Below are positions 29,808-42,043 of a stretch of DNA of 48,241 nucleotides, piece by piece. The notes below the pieces were generated by a model, which was given only the letters and a program-made list of their open reading frames with translations, ran no database searches and was not told where the DNA came from. Source of the DNA: a virus (lineage: Duplodnaviria; Heunggongvirae; Uroviricota; Caudoviricetes); IMG/VR virus record IMGVR_UViG_2617270956_000008, positions 1 through 48,241 of that record; one strand, given 5' to 3'. Both the position numbers and the translations under genes were made by a program. How positions within the stretch are numbered: position 1 is the stretch's first letter; every line of letters starts with the position of its first letter.

Positions 29808-30158
29808 TTACTTCAGCCGTTCACGGGCCGTCTTCGCCTTATGACACGGCCAGCACAGGCTCTGCAGATTACTGTCTGCATCGGTGCCGCCATGCGCTTT
29901 AGGGATGATGTGATCAACGGTTTTCGCCTCACGCACCACACCAGCACGCAGACATAACTGACACAGGCCTTTGTCACGCTTGAGCACACGTTCACGGATA
30001 ACATCCCATTTCGAACCATAACCGCGCTGATGACGGGATTGTCCTGGCTTGTATTGCTTCCAGCCTTCGCTTTTGTGGCTTTCGCAGTAGCCTGACGGGT
30101 CAGTCGTGGTATTGCGGCAGCCGCGAACACGGCAGGCTTTTGGGGTTCGTGGTGGCAT
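29808..30158 (-). CDS. HNH endonuclease (terminase-associated), 116 aa
   Basis: Cys pairs CxxC ... CxxC with a DHIIPKAHGG HNH core; located just upstream of TerS. Confidence 0.85.
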   Translation of the reverse strand: MPPRTPKACRVRGCRNTTTDPSGYCESHKSEGWKQYKPGQSRHQRGYGSKWDVIRERVLKRDKGLCQLCLRAGVVREAKTVDHIIPKAHGGTDADSNLQSLCWPCHKAKTARERLK

Positions 30159-30229
30159 TTAAAGTTTTCCTGCAATCATCACGATGATGTTTGTCCATGG
30201 TGATGGCAACAAAAAACGCCAGAAGGCGG

Positions 30230-30838
30230 CTATAAAATGTGCTCTAGAATCCGCATATTTCCTTCAAAAAGTATTTCCTTTTTTAACGGATCAACTATTT
30301 CACCACTCCAATATTTATGAGCTTTTTCTAAGGCAATATCATACGGTATATCGTCATTCATCAAATGTTCATCACTCGCCTCATGTATAACTCCATCCAA
30401 CTCAACTCTGAACACAGTCTGATTGTCCCCCAATCCCAACTGCGAAATCCAATAGTGAAGACTTTCTTCACCTTGTGAAACCCATAAGCATTTCTGTCTT
30501 GAAGGCTTTTTTGGGTAATATTCAACTCGAACGGCTTCCCAAATCAGTTCTCTAGTATATTTACAAAAATGCATAGCCAATTCTTGACCAACTGCCGCTA
30601 TATCCTGTACAGAACACTTAGTAGTAAGTGACCCTGTCTTTAGGCCATAAAGCCACTGCATTCTCGTATAGTCAGTTAGATGCCCGTTAACATTTACTGG
30701 TATTGGAGGGATGTTTGAACTTAAGAAATAATTAAAAAAGGGATTTGGGAATGAGGTGCTAGCTAAATCTCCTACTGCCAAAGGCCTATACTTAACCCAA
30801 GGATTTTGCGATTTAGTTGCTATGTAAAAATAGTCCAT
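30230..30838 (-). CDS. hypothetical protein (202 aa), AT-rich moron downstream of lysis cassette
   Basis: ORF in AT-rich DNA between Rz and HNH; preceded by two 12-bp direct repeats (CTTACCACTATA on the plus strand at 30844-30855 and 30866-30877). Confidence 0.55.
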   Translation of the reverse strand: MDYFYIATKSQNPWVKYRPLAVGDLASTSFPNPFFNYFLSSNIPPIPVNVNGHLTDYTRMQWLYGLKTGSLTTKCSVQDIAAVGQELAMHFCKYTRELIWEAVRVEYYPKKPSRQKCLWVSQGEESLHYWISQLGLGDNQTVFRVELDGVIHEASDEHLMNDDIPYDIALEKAHKYWSGEIVDPLKKEILFEGNMRILEHIL

Positions 30839-30943
30839 GCGTACTTACCACTATAAAAAAGACACCTTACCACTATATTTTACACAAGCAACCAACATTT
30901 AGCAGCACCTATTCGCAATAACTATTTATTCCAGCAAAAGAGT

Positions 30944-31411
30944 TTACTTCCGACACTGAGTGTCAATATATTCCTGTAACGCTCTCAATGATGCTTGATC
31001 TCTGATAATTCCGGATCTGATACCGAGAAGGTTTCGTCCAGCAATTGGAGAGAGTTCGACGGTGGCATCATTGCCCACGCTGGCGGTGCCGGAGGCTTTT
31101 GTTGTGGCTGGCACTGGACATTTGCCTTTGACGAGCACCCTACCACCATTATCAAGCTTGCGCCGAAGAGCATCATTTTCAGCTTTCGCATCAGCTAACT
31201 CCTTCGTGTATTTAGCATCAAGTGCATCAGCATCACGCTGGCGCTGCTGCATGTCAGTAATGGTGGCGGTCGCCAGCTGCAGCTCACTAACTTTTTTATC
31301 GCGCTGGTCTTTATAGGTGATGGCGTTGTCACGGTAATGATTAACAGACCATGACAGGCAGACGATGATGCAGATAACCAGAGCGGAGATAATCGCGGTG
31401 ACTCTGCTCAT
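30944..31411 (-). CDS. Rz: i-spanin Rz, 155 aa
   Basis: N-terminal half [21 protein letters not shown]...[22 protein letters not shown] closely matches lambda Rz as recalled. Confidence 0.85.
30985..31191 (-). CDS. Rz1: o-spanin Rz1 (lipoprotein) embedded in Rz, +1 frame
   Basis: Embedded ORF with lipobox LIMVVGCSS and a proline-rich stretch KPPAPPAW, as in lambda Rz1. Confidence 0.75.
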
Positions 31412-32319: not shown

Positions 32320-33711
32320 TCACTTAATAGGATTTGGTTTTATGTCGTCAAGCCAGTCGTTATCACCTCTTAGCTTGGCTACTCGTCCTTCAACATTAGT
32401 TAACGGTTTATAAGCAGAGTATTTGCCTATAGCCCTAGCAGAATGCTCTCCAGCAACACGATAATTTTGGAAGTCCAACTCAAGTCCATGCTGCTCCGCT
32501 CTCATTCGAATATAACCACGAAGCATGTTTTCTCTAAATCGAAACCAAGATGGACGATTCCCTAAAGCAGGGATGATGATGCATCCAAATGTCGGTTTCT
32601 TCAATGCATTGAACTTTCGCTCAAACGTGGATTTATCTAAAGGTGTTACATCAAGCGATTTGCAAATTTTAACGTACGATTCTGATATATGAGTCTTATG
32701 TCTGGTCAAATCAGCCATATCGGACATAGCCCAAAGAATATGCTTATATGACTCATCACGTCCCTCTGTTGCATCCGTGTAACTTTGCCTTAAAGTTTCC
32801 GAGACTGAATCAATTGCATCATTTAACCCTTTAATGAAAAGGTTGTAATCAACAGAGCTGTATTCACGTATTGAGCTTTGACATGTTAAAAGGATTTTTT
32901 CACAAATAAGATGAATGTAGTTCGGGAACCCGTCACTAAGACCCGCAATTTTATAGCGGACAGAATCATCGACAGTCAGGCCAAACTCATCGAAAGCATT
33001 ATCAATTATTTGAAAACGACCATTCCATGGTAAACTATCGAGATGTACCTGATGTATTTGTCGCTCACTTGATTTATGCCCTCCGATTAAAGTAACGAGA
33101 GAATCACCAATCCCCGTAAAAATTAATTTTACTTCACACGCCTGATCACCAAGTTGTTTAATGAGTGATCCAAACTTTTGTCGTTCTTCATCAGAGTCAA
33201 TTTGGTCAAACTCATCGATAACTATATAAGGAATCTTTGAGTGAACTTTAGTTAAAAATTGCAACGCCCGAACGGCTGCAGAAACTGAGTCAATTTTCAG
33301 TTCTGGATAATTATATTTTTGATTTTGACCAGCATTGATACCACCAATTCCAGCCACATTTAAGCCAAAGCTCCATCCCTGTGTATCGATTTTCTTATCC
33401 TGAGGTGTGCCTCGCAAAATAATGTCATTCATGACACTTGAAAAAGTGGATTCTTTCTCGCAGCCAACCAAAATAGGTTCAGCATCTTCCTGCAGCTTAA
33501 AAGCAACAGTTTGCGCTAAGGATGTCTTTCCTACTCCGCGATCACCATAAATGAAAGCATGCCGACCTGTAGCATAAAGCGCCAATTCGAGATCGGTTAC
33601 ATGTTTTTCACGTCCAAATAACAGTTCCATAGAAACAACTGGACCCGTTGGTCGCAAAACTTTATGCAGTTTATGCATAAAGTCTCGCAAAGAAAGACCT
33701 CCACAGAGCAT
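32320..33711 (-). CDS. P-loop NTPase (AAA/ORC-like ATPase) of unknown function, 463 aa, moron
   Basis: ATG with AGGAG SD; Walker A GDRGVGKTS and Walker B YIVIDEFD; LFGRE motif before Walker A; AT-rich (sampled blocks about 35-42 percent GC); between Q-like gene and holin. Confidence 0.7.
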   Translation of the reverse strand: MLCGGLSLRDFMHKLHKVLRPTGPVVSMELLFGREKHVTDLELALYATGRHAFIYGDRGVGKTSLAQTVAFKLQEDAEPILVGCEKESTFSSVMNDIILRGTPQDKKIDTQGWSFGLNVAGIGGINAGQNQKYNYPELKIDSVSAAVRALQFLTKVHSKIPYIVIDEFDQIDSDEERQKFGSLIKQLGDQACEVKLIFTGIGDSLVTLIGGHKSSERQIHQVHLDSLPWNGRFQIIDNAFDEFGLTVDDSVRYKIAGLSDGFPNYIHLICEKILLTCQSSIREYSSVDYNLFIKGLNDAIDSVSETLRQSYTDATEGRDESYKHILWAMSDMADLTRHKTHISESYVKICKSLDVTPLDKSTFERKFNALKKPTFGCIIIPALGNRPSWFRFRENMLRGYIRMRAEQHGLELDFQNYRVAGEHSARAIGKYSAYKPLTNVEGRVAKLRGDNDWLDDIKPNPIK

Positions 33712-33850: not shown

Positions 33851-34429
33851 TCAAGCACTTTCTTGCTCACTTTGCAATTTAAATCTGTCGCTATTTGTGC
33901 CAAACGCATCACATAGTGGAGCGTACAGGAGCGATTCGGCCAAACTTATCCATGTGTCAACTCGGCGGCGACAGGTAATGAGCGCCCAGTCAGGATGTTT
34001 AATATGAAGCTCATTGGCCATTTGCAACTTGCTCTTACGCAGACGATACCGGCCAACAATCACACCGTATAGAGAACGGTAATCATTATTCATCAGCACC
34101 GAGGCGATCACACCGTCAATCTTCAGGCCTTCATCGTCCGAGCAAAACGCCAGACTACTTTTGTTTTTACTGTTGAGTATTTCGCGCAAATAAGCTTCGA
34201 GCTCTGGTTTCGTAATGCCTGACTTTTTCATACGGCGCAGCGCATCGTTGATTGCAGTTTTGGTAATTTTGCTGGATACAAGCAGTTGGTTAAACATGTT
34301 ACCGCTAGTCCCTCCACTGATATAAGACCAACGCCCCCACATGCGGAGCTTCCCCTGAACCCAGATACTTTCCAGAGTACGAAGACGAACCATTTCACCC
34401 GTTTTGCCAATTTCAGAAGGATTAATCAT
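33851..34429 (-). CDS. putative late-gene antiterminator (Q-like), 192 aa
   Basis: Position immediately upstream of the tR'-like terminator and lysis region, after the DUF968-like gene as in Qin-type prophages; similarity is weak, so the call rests mainly on synteny. Confidence 0.45.
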   Translation of the reverse strand: MINPSEIGKTGEMVRLRTLESIWVQGKLRMWGRWSYISGGTSGNMFNQLLVSSKITKTAINDALRRMKKSGITKPELEAYLREILNSKNKSSLAFCSDDEGLKIDGVIASVLMNNDYRSLYGVIVGRYRLRKSKLQMANELHIKHPDWALITCRRRVDTWISLAESLLYAPLCDAFGTNSDRFKLQSEQESA

Positions 34430-40473: not shown

Positions 40474-41139
40474 TCAAACAAACCCAGCCGCTTTCCGGCG
40501 TTCATATTCCTGTTTCAGCAACTCAATTGGCGTTGGCCCCGACGGGCGTTTGGGTGCCGCCAGTTGTCGCCGGACTGGCGGAACGCTCAGGCCGTTACTA
40601 ACATGCTTTGCCCATTTCGCCAGCTGCCGTTCTGCAAGCCGTTTTAATTCCCCTTCGGTCATCTGGCGCTCAATCCCCTTTGAACGCATCTCGAGGCAAA
40701 TGTGATACAGCACAGGCTGAGACCACGGGTACTTATCACTTCCGTCATATCGCCAGGACTCATTGCGCCAGCGGCGGTACTCCTCCATCACAGCATCCAC
40801 CGTCAGACCGAATGGATTGGCTCCGCTTTCCGAAATCAGTGCCACAAACTCAGCCAGGTCCGGAGGCCATGTTTCACCCGCCCGGCAGCGGTCCATGCAC
40901 TGGCGGCAGACCTGTCGGATTTGCTGCTCAGTCATCGCGCCAATCTGTGCAATCCAGAGCTTCGAAGGTGCGGCCCCGTTCTTCTGGGTCCAGCGGTTCG
41001 AATAAACCTCCCCCATGAGTTCCCACAGCTTCCAGACCGTTTCCGTCGCTGATAAATCCGTTTTCACGTTCCCACTGCTCACGTGCTGCCCGAATTTCCT
41101 GAACTGCCCGTGATGCGGTGCCACCTGGTGCTGCTGCAT
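40474..41139 (-). CDS. replication protein P-like (helicase loader), 221 aa
   Basis: Pattern GAMTEQQIRQV...YPWSQPVLYHICLEM...TEGELKRLAERQL parallels lambda P as recalled; overlaps the O-like ORF out of frame by 212 nt. Confidence 0.55.
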   Translation of the reverse strand: MQQHQVAPHHGQFRKFGQHVSSGNVKTDLSATETVWKLWELMGEVYSNRWTQKNGAAPSKLWIAQIGAMTEQQIRQVCRQCMDRCRAGETWPPDLAEFVALISESGANPFGLTVDAVMEEYRRWRNESWRYDGSDKYPWSQPVLYHICLEMRSKGIERQMTEGELKRLAERQLAKWAKHVSNGLSVPPVRRQLAAPKRPSGPTPIELLKQEYERRKAAGFV

Positions 41140-42043
41140 GGTTTACCCCCTTGCTGACTGGTTTAACCTGCGCCCTGACGTGATTTACGTGACGGGCGAA
41201 TTTCTGCTCCCACTGAATCTGCGTAAACACTTTCCCCTCCGCTGCCCAGTAGTCCCGGAAGGCGGCAAGTTCAGCAGGTGTAAATTCTGTCTCCGGCAAA
41301 GCCATCCCCCACAACGCAGCCCGTCGTCGAAAATCCCGTGACGGATACCAGCTATCGGTCATCGGAAATTTTCCGATGGGTTCGCTCAGGCCATCCAGGA
41401 ATACAAGGGGTGCTGCCTGTAACGACAAAACTTCCTGCTCACTGGTCGGAGCACTCTCGCGTGCGTTATGTGTGGGGTTTAGATCTTTGGGTTCCTTTGG
41501 GTTCCGTGATCCGTTTTTGGGTGTCTTTGATGGAAAATTTGGGTGTCTTTGGTTATTTTCCATGCAGCTAAGAGTTCCGTTTTTGGGTCTGTTTTGTGCT
41601 GAAACATAACCATTTTCGGTACTGTTTTTATTAACAGCACCAATTTTACCCACCTTTAAAGACTCCCGTTTTTGGGTGTATTCAGGCTCGGCAACACTTT
41701 CTTCTACACCGATAAGTCGGTACACCACAATTTGCTTTGTTCTGCCTTTTCTCTCACCGGTATCAACAATTAACCCAATCTCCATCAGGTGTCGTAAGCT
41801 GTCCTGCACAGTCTTTTTGTTCAGTTCCGTTACTTCTGCCAGTGCAGATACAGACGGGTATGCACACAAATCGGCACCGCACATATCAGCAAGCCAGGTC
41901 AATACAGACTTACTGGATGAACTGCCGGTTTTCACCTTTTTAGCCCATCGTAGTGCATCGATACTCATACAAACCCCTGGCAGACATTTGTTTATCTGCA
42001 AAGTAATATTGATATTGCTGACGATACGCATGCTTGAAAGCAA
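40928..42043 (-). CDS. replication initiator O-like protein (N-terminal HTH), up to 371 aa
   Basis: Position after the YdaT-like and Cro-like genes; the true start is probably the ATG at 41968 (MSIDALRWAKK...). Confidence 0.55.
   Translation of the reverse strand: MLSSMRIVSNINITLQINKCLPGVCMSIDALRWAKKVKTGSSSSKSVLTWLADMCGADLCAYPSVSALAEVTELNKKTVQDSLRHLMEIGLIVDTGERKGRTKQIVVYRLIGVEESVAEPEYTQKRESLKVGKIGAVNKNSTENGYVSAQNRPKNGTLSCMENNQRHPNFPSKTPKNGSRNPKEPKDLNPTHNARESAPTSEQEVLSLQAAPLVFLDGLSEPIGKFPMTDSWYPSRDFRRRAALWGMALPETEFTPAELAAFRDYWAAEGKVFTQIQWEQKFARHVNHVRAQVKPVSKGVNHAAAPGGTASRAVQEIRAAREQWERENGFISDGNGLEAVGTHGGGLFEPLDPEERGRTFEALDCTDWRDD

Follow-up and report, generated by a model that had tools for sequence, protein, structure and literature searches.

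A DUF2441 protein with an ADP-ribosyltransferase fold, putatively an NAD+-dependent modifier, in an exchangeable cargo slot of a lambdoid prophage

The cargo slots of temperate phages are rich in virulence and anti-phage genes. Comparison systems for such slots are the morons of the HK97/HK022 type (Juhala, Hendrix and colleagues) and lambda bor with its E. coli homolog iss, a known serum-resistance gene that encodes an outer-membrane lipoprotein and is transcribed from the opposite strand under its own promoter. Several ADP-ribosyltransferases (ARTs) serve as comparison enzymes. T4 Alt, ModA and ModB are phage-encoded cytoplasmic ARTs of the R-S-E class that modify host proteins in infection and that this virulent phage produces early or injects. 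DarT, the toxin of DarTG, ADP-ribosylates thymidine or guanosine of single-stranded DNA in an abortive-infection defence; Arr, the rifampin ADP-ribosyltransferase, is a minimal, partner-less H-Y-[DE] enzyme found on mobile elements; and the RNA 2'-phosphotransferase Tpt1/KptA binds nucleic-acid phosphate through an Arg cluster with NAD+ as co-substrate. Here we describe a slot that alternates between iss/bor and a gene of the DUF2441 family, which comprises about 1,400 sequence clusters, has had its fold known from a crystal structure for 20 years and is still without an assigned activity.

The window, that is the whole stretch of 48,241 nucleotides that was analysed, contains at positions 30230–30943 a gene and its leader between the lysis and packaging genes. 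We favour, with confidence slightly above even, the reading of this segment as an exchangeable cargo cassette that encodes an ART-fold, putative NAD+-dependent modifier in a lambdoid E. coli prophage of the HK97 packaging type. The slot and its edges are made up as follows, in order of coordinates.

29808..30158, minus strand: HNH endonuclease gene, part of a packaging module of the HK97 type, downstream edge of the cargo slot (Pfam HNH, E 2.3e-16)
30230..30838, minus strand: coding sequence of the DUF2441/BC2332-like ART-fold protein, ATG start, 202 aa, identical to RefSeq WP_000384431.1
30839..30943, minus strand: AT-rich leader of 105 bp from the Rz stop codon to the DUF2441 start codon, specific to one prophage lineage
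30944..31411, minus strand: Rz spanin gene, upstream edge of the cargo slot (Pfam Phage_lysis, E 1.5e-29)
30985..31191, minus strand: Rz1, embedded in Rz, taken from the ORF list

DUF2441 is the only gene between Rz and HNH, so that the slot holds a single-gene cassette, and the genes for TerS and TerL follow downstream beside the HNH gene. The first-pass annotation had described an AT-rich gene of 202 aa after Rz in a moron position and had compared it to lambda bor, and both the base composition and the distribution of the gene bear this out. Its GC content is 0.379 (GC3 0.325), as against 0.50 in Rz, 0.56 in HNH, 0.54 in TerL (GC3 0.50–0.64 in these three) and 0.476 in the whole window. It is present in 50 of 5,426 complete E. 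coli genomes (about 1%), several of them labelled O25b:H4-ST131. The same Rz and HNH flanks enclose other contents elsewhere, namely iss/bor, DUF6979 together with a hypothetical gene, or two hypothetical genes; phages SfI and SKA5 carry one hypothetical gene each in this slot, and a related O157:H7 prophage has iss exactly there. Conservation as a core function in all relatives, which the first-pass annotation had named as the finding that would speak against a moron, is thus not what these prophages show. Homology around the slot breaks off close to its edges: in the best phage-collection matches it extends through Rz to the region of the Rz stop codon (window ~30944–30969), at related prophage loci the upstream homology reaches only ~31164–31182, inside Rz, and the downstream flank is shared with related prophages up to 30158 and with phage SKA5 up to 30229. 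Homologs at 41–60% identity have unrelated lysis cassettes before them and unrelated terminases behind them, the position right after the lysis cassette being kept across mosaic phages. Together these data support the slot as a cargo (moron) position and the DUF2441 gene as exchangeable.

Like bor and iss, the DUF2441 gene lies after Rz and before the packaging genes, differs in composition from its neighbours, is missing from this position in close relatives and is followed, in homologs, by a terminator. Unlike bor and iss, it encodes a cytoplasmic protein and is co-oriented with the late operon, and the allele in the window lacks a recognisable promoter and has a degraded terminator. The gene is under strong constraint (dN/dS 0.07). 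A 485-aa glycosyltransferase gene follows it at two homolog loci (L032 and L035) and was considered as an obligatory partner; it is found at none of the others and represents further cargo, and no recurrent partner gene was seen across the homolog loci. As it stands, the locus is a well-behaved but ordinary moron.

The gene had also been called an orphan, a label that did not survive the remote homology and structure search which the first-pass annotation itself had proposed. The protein matches PF10386 (DUF2441) with 44.2 bits against a gathering cutoff of 25 (E 2.5e-11), PGAP/RefSeq already names the identical protein "DUF2441 domain-containing protein", and the family profile aligns over its full length to a solved structural homolog, BC2332 of Bacillus cereus (PDB 2AUA, E 8.8e-34). 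The AF2 model of the window protein has a pLDDT of 85, and the protein is assigned the split beta-sheet of the ART fold. In agreement with this, SCOP places the "BC2332-like" family (d.166.1.6) in the ADP-ribosylation superfamily (PMC3000352), Pfam assigns DUF2441 to its ART clan (PMC7955679), and ProFunc matched a site of 2AUA to the catalytic site of diphtheria toxin (PMC3024214). The window gene therefore encodes a conserved, cytoplasmic, stand-alone member of the DUF2441/BC2332-like family, and the fold of this family, whose clusters come from Bacillota, Bacteroidota, Nitrospirota and other phyla, is that of the ARTs. Membership gives the fold and not the function, because BC2332 is itself functionally uncharacterised; no experimental paper or published assay was found in the literature for any DUF2441 protein. 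Profile searches of the PDB returned 2AUA as the sole match and no characterised ART, and a fold search of BFVD returned uncharacterised phage proteins only. A sequence tie to a characterised ART was dropped, since E. coli KptA, compared by hhalign with the family alignment of 121 sequences, reached a probability of 0.1% and hence showed no sequence-profile link.

Across 166 family representatives, a set of residues is 92–100% conserved, most of them invariant or differing in one sequence, and the window protein has all of these (N32, R96, E97, E101, R104, P112-S113-R114, W119, W130, Y176-W177-x-G179, E188 and G193). The set includes an Arg/Glu cluster, fully retained in the window protein, and the putative catalytic E188, which is present in 165 of the 166 representatives. 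The N-terminal strand carries the motif [FY]-H-I, with His in 134 (81%) and Tyr in 20 (12%) of the representatives; the window protein belongs to the minority, having Tyr5 in place of the conserved beta1 His. By order of secondary structure elements and by alignment to 2AUA, the candidate triad maps to [H/Y]5, W119 (Tyr in 2AUA) and E188. BC2332 and the window protein share the motifs RE..xE..R, PSR, YW.G and E.L..G and, in the strand after PSR, an aromatic residue. They differ in that BC2332 has the classical H-Y-E arrangement, in which beta1 carries the His and Tyr takes the place of W119. Inspection of the N-terminus, MDYFYIATKSQNPWVKYRPL, revealed no hydrophobic signal sequence, and no B-subunit gene was found at the locus; thus signal peptide and B-subunit or delivery gene, the traits of secreted ART exotoxins of the cholera, diphtheria and ArtAB types, are missing here.

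Each of the named ARTs resembles the DUF2441 protein in part. With DarT it shares that it is a small cytoplasmic bacterial ART with a plausible nucleic-acid target, and we take its beta1 motif to resemble the aromatic-H-hydrophobic-[ST] type of DarT. It differs from DarT in that no macrodomain antitoxin gene lies next to it, the sequences are not similar, PADLOC gave no match, and between beta1 and the next core strand it carries an insertion of roughly 110 residues with its own invariant Arg/Glu cluster. Arr is likewise stand-alone but comprises only about 140 aa without this insert, acts on a small molecule and is 13% identical in sequence. Tpt1/KptA, which served as the model for the role proposed below for the Arg cluster, differs in domain architecture and shows no detectable profile similarity, and T4 Alt, ModA and ModB show no detectable similarity to the window protein.

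Our best guess is that the window protein acts in the cytoplasm as an NAD+-dependent modifying enzyme and serves in phage–host or phage–phage conflict. NAD+ would be held in a cleft lined by [H/Y]5 of beta1, the aromatic W119 and the invariant E188, and the family-specific cluster of R96, E97, E101, R104, S113 and R114 may grip a phosphate-rich target, which could be a nucleic acid or a nucleotide-bound protein. The target would be ADP-ribosylated or otherwise modified, and the gain would lie in conflict between phages or with the host, for example in superinfection defence or host takeover. A more specific proposal, to which we assign a low probability, is that DUF2441/BC2332-like proteins are single-gene NAD+-dependent conflict effectors carried as prophage cargo, providing a stand-alone ART defence without antitoxin in which the Arg/Glu cluster recognises the target. 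Such an effector might ADP-ribosylate nucleic acid or a factor needed for replication or translation, belonging to a superinfecting phage or, late in infection, to the host. In this lineage, the repeats and stem-loop of the leader, described below, could make its translation depend on whether the transcript comes from an own promoter or from late read-through. If the family turns out to act as an NAD+-dependent modifier, a partner-less ART would join the enzymes of phage conflict and a widespread DUF would gain a function.

The genomic context of the family points only weakly to a role in conflict. Family members also occur outside phages, where one homolog lies inside a type I restriction-modification (R-M) operon and one beside Septu PtuAB. 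A further homolog lies beside a KAP-NTPase candidate defence gene. Such an association was seen at only 3–4 of about 25 loci, and 56 further neighbours at about 20 distant loci gave almost no defence signal, so that a general association of the family with defence islands is suggestive only. The window protein itself matched no known defence protein (0 families of PADLOC v2 at E <= 1) and 0 families of NCBIfam, and no cognate antitoxin of the DarTG, RES-Xre or ParST type adjoins its gene. A possible connection with gipd474, a published defence gene of Gifsy, was discarded, as its product is a ParA-like ATPase encoded near the immunity region and is unrelated.

Expression of the cassette has to be considered together with four small features in and around the leader.

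30211..30228, minus strand: degenerate remnant of an intrinsic terminator, in which CGCC-TTCT-GGCG and then T6 come right behind the stop codon
30813..30895, minus strand: possible mRNA stem-loop, weakly supported, in which codons 2–9 pair with leader sequence that takes in the first half of repeat copy 1
30844..30855, minus strand: direct repeat copy 2, counted in the direction of the gene, TATAGTGGTAAG, which stops 5 nt short of the ATG and overlaps the probable ribosome-binding region
30866..30877, minus strand: direct repeat copy 1 (in gene orientation), TATAGTGGTAAG, with a TATAGT −10-like hexamer and, together with the next base, a UAAGG Shine-Dalgarno-like motif

The gene lies on the strand of the late operon between Rz and the packaging genes and is therefore expected to be transcribed by Q-antiterminated read-through in lytic growth. 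The terminators of homologs and the promoter-like sites upstream of some of them indicate that members of the family are also autonomous units expressible from the prophage. In the predicted RNA fold, the stem-loop encloses the Shine-Dalgarno region and the AUG with about 22 bp and two bulges; the z-score of the whole-region fold is only −1.56, with 13 of 200 shuffles folding as well, and the leader offers no sequence variation for a covariation analysis. Searched against Rfam, the leader gave nothing at E <= 1.

The first-pass annotation had seen in the two 12-bp repeats a sign of control by a dedicated regulator. In such a reading, which we regard as quite improbable, the repeats would be operator or activator sites of a DNA-binding protein that switches the moron, for instance for expression in the lysogen from a −35-less promoter with TATAGT boxes. 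The repeats themselves are as reported: CTTACCACTATA occurs exactly at 30844–30855 and 30866–30877, immediately before the start codon, with 22 bp from start to start and a gap of 10 bp. This spacing is about two helical turns and would thus place both copies on the same face of the DNA. Both carry the −10-like TATAGT, which agrees with the consensus in 5 of 6 bases and, with no usable −35 element, would suit an activator-dependent promoter, and both carry the Shine-Dalgarno-like GGTAAG. An exact 12-bp repeat is also improbable within a leader of 105 bp. Over the whole window the pair is only marginally unusual, because 15% of windows obtained by block-wise dinucleotide shuffling hold at least one exact non-overlapping direct repeat of at least 12 bp within 50 bp (0.165 expected per window); it is notable mainly for falling inside the intergenic leader. 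Against the regulator stands the distribution of the repeats. The pair and the entire leader are confined to a prophage lineage of at least 99% identity, one member of which (L031) has a spacer 1 nt shorter, and no diverged homolog has the repeats upstream, not even the 78% homolog L032, where DNA homology stops at the ATG with none upstream. There is no third copy in the 48-kb window with up to 2 mismatches allowed, the cassette contains no regulator gene, and a 122-bp leader query in sensitive mode returned from the 5,426 E. coli genomes the same 50 genomes only, so that the leader precedes no other gene. Compared by eye, the repeats show no convincing match to the consensus sites of CRP, LexA, CpxR, PhoP, NarL or IHF. 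Two further origins were rejected: a simple 22-bp tandem duplication, since the 10 nt after each copy agree at only about 2 of 10 bases, and a portable regulatory element, since an IMG/VR search for TATAGTGGTAAG-N6-14-TATAGTGGTAAG matched only the same prophage lineage and irrelevant coding repeats. The latter were collagen-like GYSGKSGYSG repeats on two unrelated contigs. The repeats are thus a lineage-specific feature of the 5' leader of this allele and not an operator conserved across the gene family; they carry little evidential weight, and a dedicated regulator is unsupported.

A second alternative holds that the gene is not a lysogen-expressed moron but a late lytic-cycle accessory, expressed from the Q-dependent late transcript and directed, late in infection, at a component of the host or of the phage that it would modify, with possible roles in protecting progeny, in countering NAD+- or ADP-ribosylation-based host defence or in host shut-off. 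Strand and operon path are shared with the lysis and packaging genes, no terminator was called between Rz and the DUF2441 gene in the window, and no sigma70-like site of at least 9/12 was found on the minus strand upstream of the gene, the best leader site by eye being CTGCTA-17-TAAAAT (8/12). No promoter-like site was found upstream of the gene in L032 either. At five homolog loci (L038–L042) the gene starts only 35–48 bp past the Rz stop codon, which leaves little space for an independent promoter and suggests co-expression with the late operon, and the conserved position behind the lysis cassette fits this as well. Against it stands the terminator, a hallmark of autonomous units that would be purposeless for a gene served purely by read-through: an intact ACCGCC-TYCG-GGCGG-T6 follows the gene at five homolog loci (L003, L032, L037, L039 and L042), the copy in L032 scoring as a 9-pair terminator, whereas the remnant in the window folds as a 4-bp stem only and went uncalled in the terminator scan. 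In addition, promoter-like sites of 10/12 lie directly upstream of the gene in L060 and L062, closely related prophages dispense with the gene, and family members sit outside phages in R-M and Septu neighbourhoods; we therefore consider a purely late role unlikely. A third alternative concerns the protein, which might be a catalytically dead ART-fold pseudo-enzyme acting as a stoichiometric binder of a nucleotide, a nucleic acid or a protein. Loss of the beta1 His abolishes NAD+ binding in some ART families, and both Tyr5 in the window allele and the missing profile match to KptA could be read in this way. However, His and Tyr interchange at this position among close enterobacterial relatives in the same genomic slot, which suggests that the two residues are functionally equivalent, and the near-invariance of E188 and the complete Arg/Glu cluster speak against a pseudo-enzyme. 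The low dN/dS points in the same direction, although a binding protein would fit it too. On this evidence a pseudo-enzyme is improbable, and an enzymatic modifier carried as exchangeable cargo remains the reading that we prefer.

Lastly, an RNA-seq table for cultured cells (PMC9867438) lists a DUF2441 gene of Salmonella as differentially expressed, the only hint, and an indirect one, of expression from the repressed prophage.

The DUF2441 gene, an ATG-initiated ORF of 202 aa at 30230..30838 (-), was found where the first-pass annotation had placed it, in the slot between the lysis cassette and the packaging genes:

farther upstream than Rz, same strand as the DUF2441 gene: endolysin and holin
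30944..31411 (-): Rz, upstream of the DUF2441 gene (Pfam Phage_lysis, E 1.5e-29), with an embedded Rz1 ORF
29808..30158 (-): HNH endonuclease, downstream of the DUF2441 gene
downstream of the DUF2441 gene, same strand: P27-type small terminase and large terminase

Its AT-richness is likewise as described, with a GC content of 0.379 and GC3 of 0.325 versus 0.50–0.56 for Rz, HNH and TerL and 0.476 for the window. Because comparison with a 78%-identical homolog yields a dN/dS of 0.07 (dN 0.144, dS 2.04), we regard it as a constrained protein-coding gene. Its description as an orphan does not hold: the product matches Pfam DUF2441 with 44.2 bits (threshold 25) and phrog_9842 end to end, and an identical protein, WP_000384431.1, is named “DUF2441 domain-containing protein” in RefSeq. 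A word-indexed search returned 28 relatives with 31–100% identity from Escherichia, Citrobacter, Enterobacter, Scandinavium and metagenomes, and an exhaustive profile search yielded 1,427 clusters (at 50% identity) with E ≤ 1e-3 and 692 with E ≤ 1e-10, whose members are nearly all stand-alone proteins of ~200 aa. One Bacilli MAG (L012 5719–6938) carries two tandem paralogs, ORFs 5719–6333 and 6345–6938.

The structure of one family member, BC2332 of Bacillus cereus (PDB 2AUA), has been solved, and a 121-sequence family profile aligns to it over the full length (E 8.8e-34). SCOP lists a “BC2332-like” family, d.166.1.6, within the ADP-ribosylation superfamily (PMC3000352), DUF2441 belongs to the Pfam ART (ADP-ribosyltransferase) clan (PMC7955679), and ProFunc analysis at MCSG matched a site in 2AUA to the diphtheria toxin catalytic site (PMC3024214). 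Gene family, fold assignment and moron slot are known already, the protein having been named by PGAP, and we are confident that the gene is cargo and that its product belongs to the DUF2441/BC2332 ART-fold family. Conservation was counted in an alignment of 166 family representatives:

N32: 163/166
R96-E97: R96 153/166, E97 invariant
E101: invariant
R104: invariant
P112-S113-R114: 165/166
W119: aromatic in all 166
W130: invariant
Y176-W177-x-G179: Y176 and W177 invariant, G179 157/166
E188: 165/166
G193: 164/166

Read from the strand order of the predicted model and the 2AUA alignment rather than from a superposition, the N-terminal strand motif [FY]-[HY]-I would correspond to ART beta1 and its “H” position, C-L-W119-V to the aromatic strand (with Tyr at the W119 position in BC2332) and K-E188-x-L-F-x-G to the strand of the catalytic Glu, giving a candidate site of H-Y-E-like arrangement. 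At the beta1 position, 81% of the 166 representatives have His and 12% have Tyr, as does the window protein. Close enterobacterial relatives in the same genomic slot alternate His and Tyr here, which argues for functional equivalence of the two residues and is not proof of activity; this alternation at the presumed NAD-binding position is new. Profile comparison of the family with E. coli KptA gave no match. The insert of ~110 residues between beta1 and the next core strand contains a long helix (residues 77–107), which bears an invariant Arg/Glu cluster, and after it the PSR loop; this cluster might bind a phosphate-rich acceptor, in the manner of the Arg tetrad of Tpt1. The predicted catalytic activity with NAD+ is in our view a serious prospect, if just short of an even one. 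Our literature search found no report of an assay on any DUF2441 family member, and the gain to be had is the experimental deorphanising of DUF2441.

The slot itself behaves as the moron position that the first-pass annotation had proposed. Of 5,426 complete E. coli genomes, 50 contain the 714-bp feature (gene and leader) at ≥99% identity; every copy is chromosomal, and several of the carriers are labelled O25b:H4-ST131. A 1.8-kb query spanning the slot matched 4,995 genomes, with its middle covered only in the same 50. Far from being a core gene of all relatives, DUF2441 is replaced by other genes in prophages with the same Rz and/or HNH flanks, and the analogy with lambda bor is borne out by a bor homolog:

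O157:H7 strain AC-5: iss (bor homolog)
strain VTB97584v: DUF6979 and a 67-aa ORF
strain N53: two hypothetical genes
phage SfI: hypothetical gene, 124 aa
phage SKA5: hypothetical gene, 106 aa

Homology in the flanks stops at the HNH start codon (30158) on one side and, in the related prophage loci, inside Rz (31164–31182) on the other; in SKA5 alone the HNH-side homology extends to 30229, one base short of the DUF2441 stop codon. Homologs of 41–60% identity occupy the same position between differing lysis modules (lambda-type holin, lysozyme and Rz; holin_2_3 and lysozyme; holin_8 and holin_3_7 with GH19) and packaging modules (HNH and P27-type TerS; Nu1 and gpA; DUF2280 and P22-like terminase). 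This recurrent placement of an ART-fold family right after the lysis cassettes of mosaic enterobacterial phages is a new observation. Among 50,697 deposited phage genomes, a detectable homolog was present only in Cronobacter phage phiES15. A glycosyltransferase of 485/486 aa (phrog_1579, “moron/auxiliary” category; 73% identical between L032 7850–9307, the locus of the 78% homolog, and L035 6770–8230) is found behind the DUF2441 gene in these two phage contigs, directly in L035 and separated from it by one ORF in L032; evidently this slot between lysis and packaging genes can hold several cargo genes in a row.

Directly 3′ of the stop codon, three homolog loci (L003, L037 and L039) carry an intrinsic terminator, ACCGCC-T(C/T)CG-GGCGG-T6, with variants in L032, where it scores as a 9-pair stem, and L042. 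The window retains a remnant at 30211–30228 (CGCC-TTCT-GGCG-T6, one G lost), which a terminator scan of the window did not call. The same terminator and the next ~15 bases follow the unrelated 106-aa cargo gene of SKA5 (L054 2702–2772); the terminator and the ensuing ATTGCCAT... are shared by the three DUF2441 homolog loci and SKA5 (region 30159–30229 of the window). Different cargo genes appear to have been swapped in and out before a shared terminator and HNH leader, and this conserved terminator with apparent cassette exchange ahead of it is likewise new.

Upstream of the gene, the first-pass annotation had reported two identical 12-bp repeats and suggested control by a dedicated regulator. 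The repeats are indeed there: CTTACCACTATA is exact at 30844–30855 and 30866–30877, each copy reads TATAGTGGTAAG on the gene strand, the proximal copy ends 5 nt short of the ATG, and no third copy exists in the window even at two mismatches. In block-wise dinucleotide shuffles of the window, exact direct repeats of ≥12 bp within 50 bp arose 0.165 times per window, and 15% of shuffles contained at least one, so that the pair, though real, is only weakly surprising at the scale of the window. Apart from it, the window has just one such repeat, formed by the replication-origin iterons: several CCGTTTTTGGGTGT-type repeats lie at ~41480–41690 within ORF 40928..42043 (-), a 371-aa replication-initiator-like gene, among them two exact 14-bp copies spaced 22 bp apart, at 41516 and 41538; iterons inside the initiator gene are the usual lambdoid ori arrangement.

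The regulator reading gains no support from comparison with other loci and we consider it improbable; the repeat itself is all that speaks for it. In IMG/VR, the repeat-pair pattern occurs only in the ≥99% lineage, one contig of which has a spacer shorter by one T, and in collagen-like Gly-X-Y coding repeats (GYSGKSGYSG...) of unrelated viral contigs (L048 12950–13070, L052 1–1450), which we dismissed as chance matches. DNA similarity to the 78% homolog begins 19 bp past the stop codon and breaks off exactly at the ATG, and diverged homologs have no repeat and nothing alignable upstream of the gene. The leader precedes no other gene in the 5,426 E. coli genomes and has no Rfam match. Each copy combines TATAGT (5/6 of the -10 consensus) with GGTAAG(G), similar to the 5′ portion of a Shine-Dalgarno sequence, and the description that fits the repeats best is a peculiarity of the promoter and ribosome-binding region of this allele, confined to its lineage; that they are not a conserved control element is shown here for the first time. 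The leader RNA can fold (30813–30895, -) into a ~22-bp stem with two bulges that pairs the copy 1 region with codons 2–9 and encloses the Shine-Dalgarno region and AUG. Such a stem could make translation dependent on the transcript start point; it is not significantly better than in shuffles (z -1.56), and the leader offers no variation for covariation.

Since the late transcript must cross the gene to reach the packaging genes, DUF2441 should unavoidably be part of the Q-dependent late transcript, and in five loci (L038–L042) it begins just 35–48 bp past the Rz stop codon. The conserved terminator suggests that genes of this family are autonomous units as well. Sigma70-like sites scoring 10/12 occur in two homolog loci, where they end 11 and 31 bp before the ATG; L032 has none upstream of the gene, and the gene strand of the window has none of ≥9/12, the best candidate by eye being CTGCTA-17-TAAAAT (8/12). 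Autonomous expression of the window allele is putative.

No signal sequence is visible in the protein, and neither an antitoxin nor a B-subunit gene adjoins its gene. The protein is predicted to be a cytoplasmic NAD+-dependent ART-fold enzyme that would serve phage–phage or phage–host conflict. Three homolog contexts are suggestive: a Clostridium MAG (L015 3024–9112) embeds the gene in a type I R-M operon, hsdM-hsdS-DUF2441-hsdR; in Citrobacter sp. ANG330 (L004 3493–6609) Septu PtuA/PtuB (E 2.7e-162 and 2.3e-104) are encoded ~360 bp upstream of it, and a single small antisense ORF occupies the interval; and in an IMG/VR contig (L036 3520–6615) it comes after genes for a KAP-family NTPase (PADLOC candidate PDC-S20) and a Q-like protein and precedes the holin, which places it in the other classical slot. 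The protein itself has no PADLOC or NCBIfam defence match, and almost nothing related to defence turned up among 56 further neighbours at ~20 distant loci. We treat a putative role in defence or superinfection as a tentative proposal, and the main alternative, a late-acting lytic accessory, as somewhat less probable still.

The window holds a second AT-rich cargo gene (GC 0.40) at 32320..33711 (-), with a Q-like DUF1133 gene (33851..34429, -) on one side and the holin on the other. Its product, a 463-aa AAA_16/STAND-like P-loop ATPase (phrog_6841), has only weak matches to PADLOC (mad8, PDC-S01) and NCBIfam (orc1/cdc6-like; DS41_1 antiphage, E 0.005), and the gene looks like a candidate defence gene. 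In the same prophage of E. coli DA33137 (L001 11554–12177), RefSeq annotates rem and the type I toxin gene hokD upstream of DUF968 and Q-like genes, which is ordinary lambdoid accessory content.
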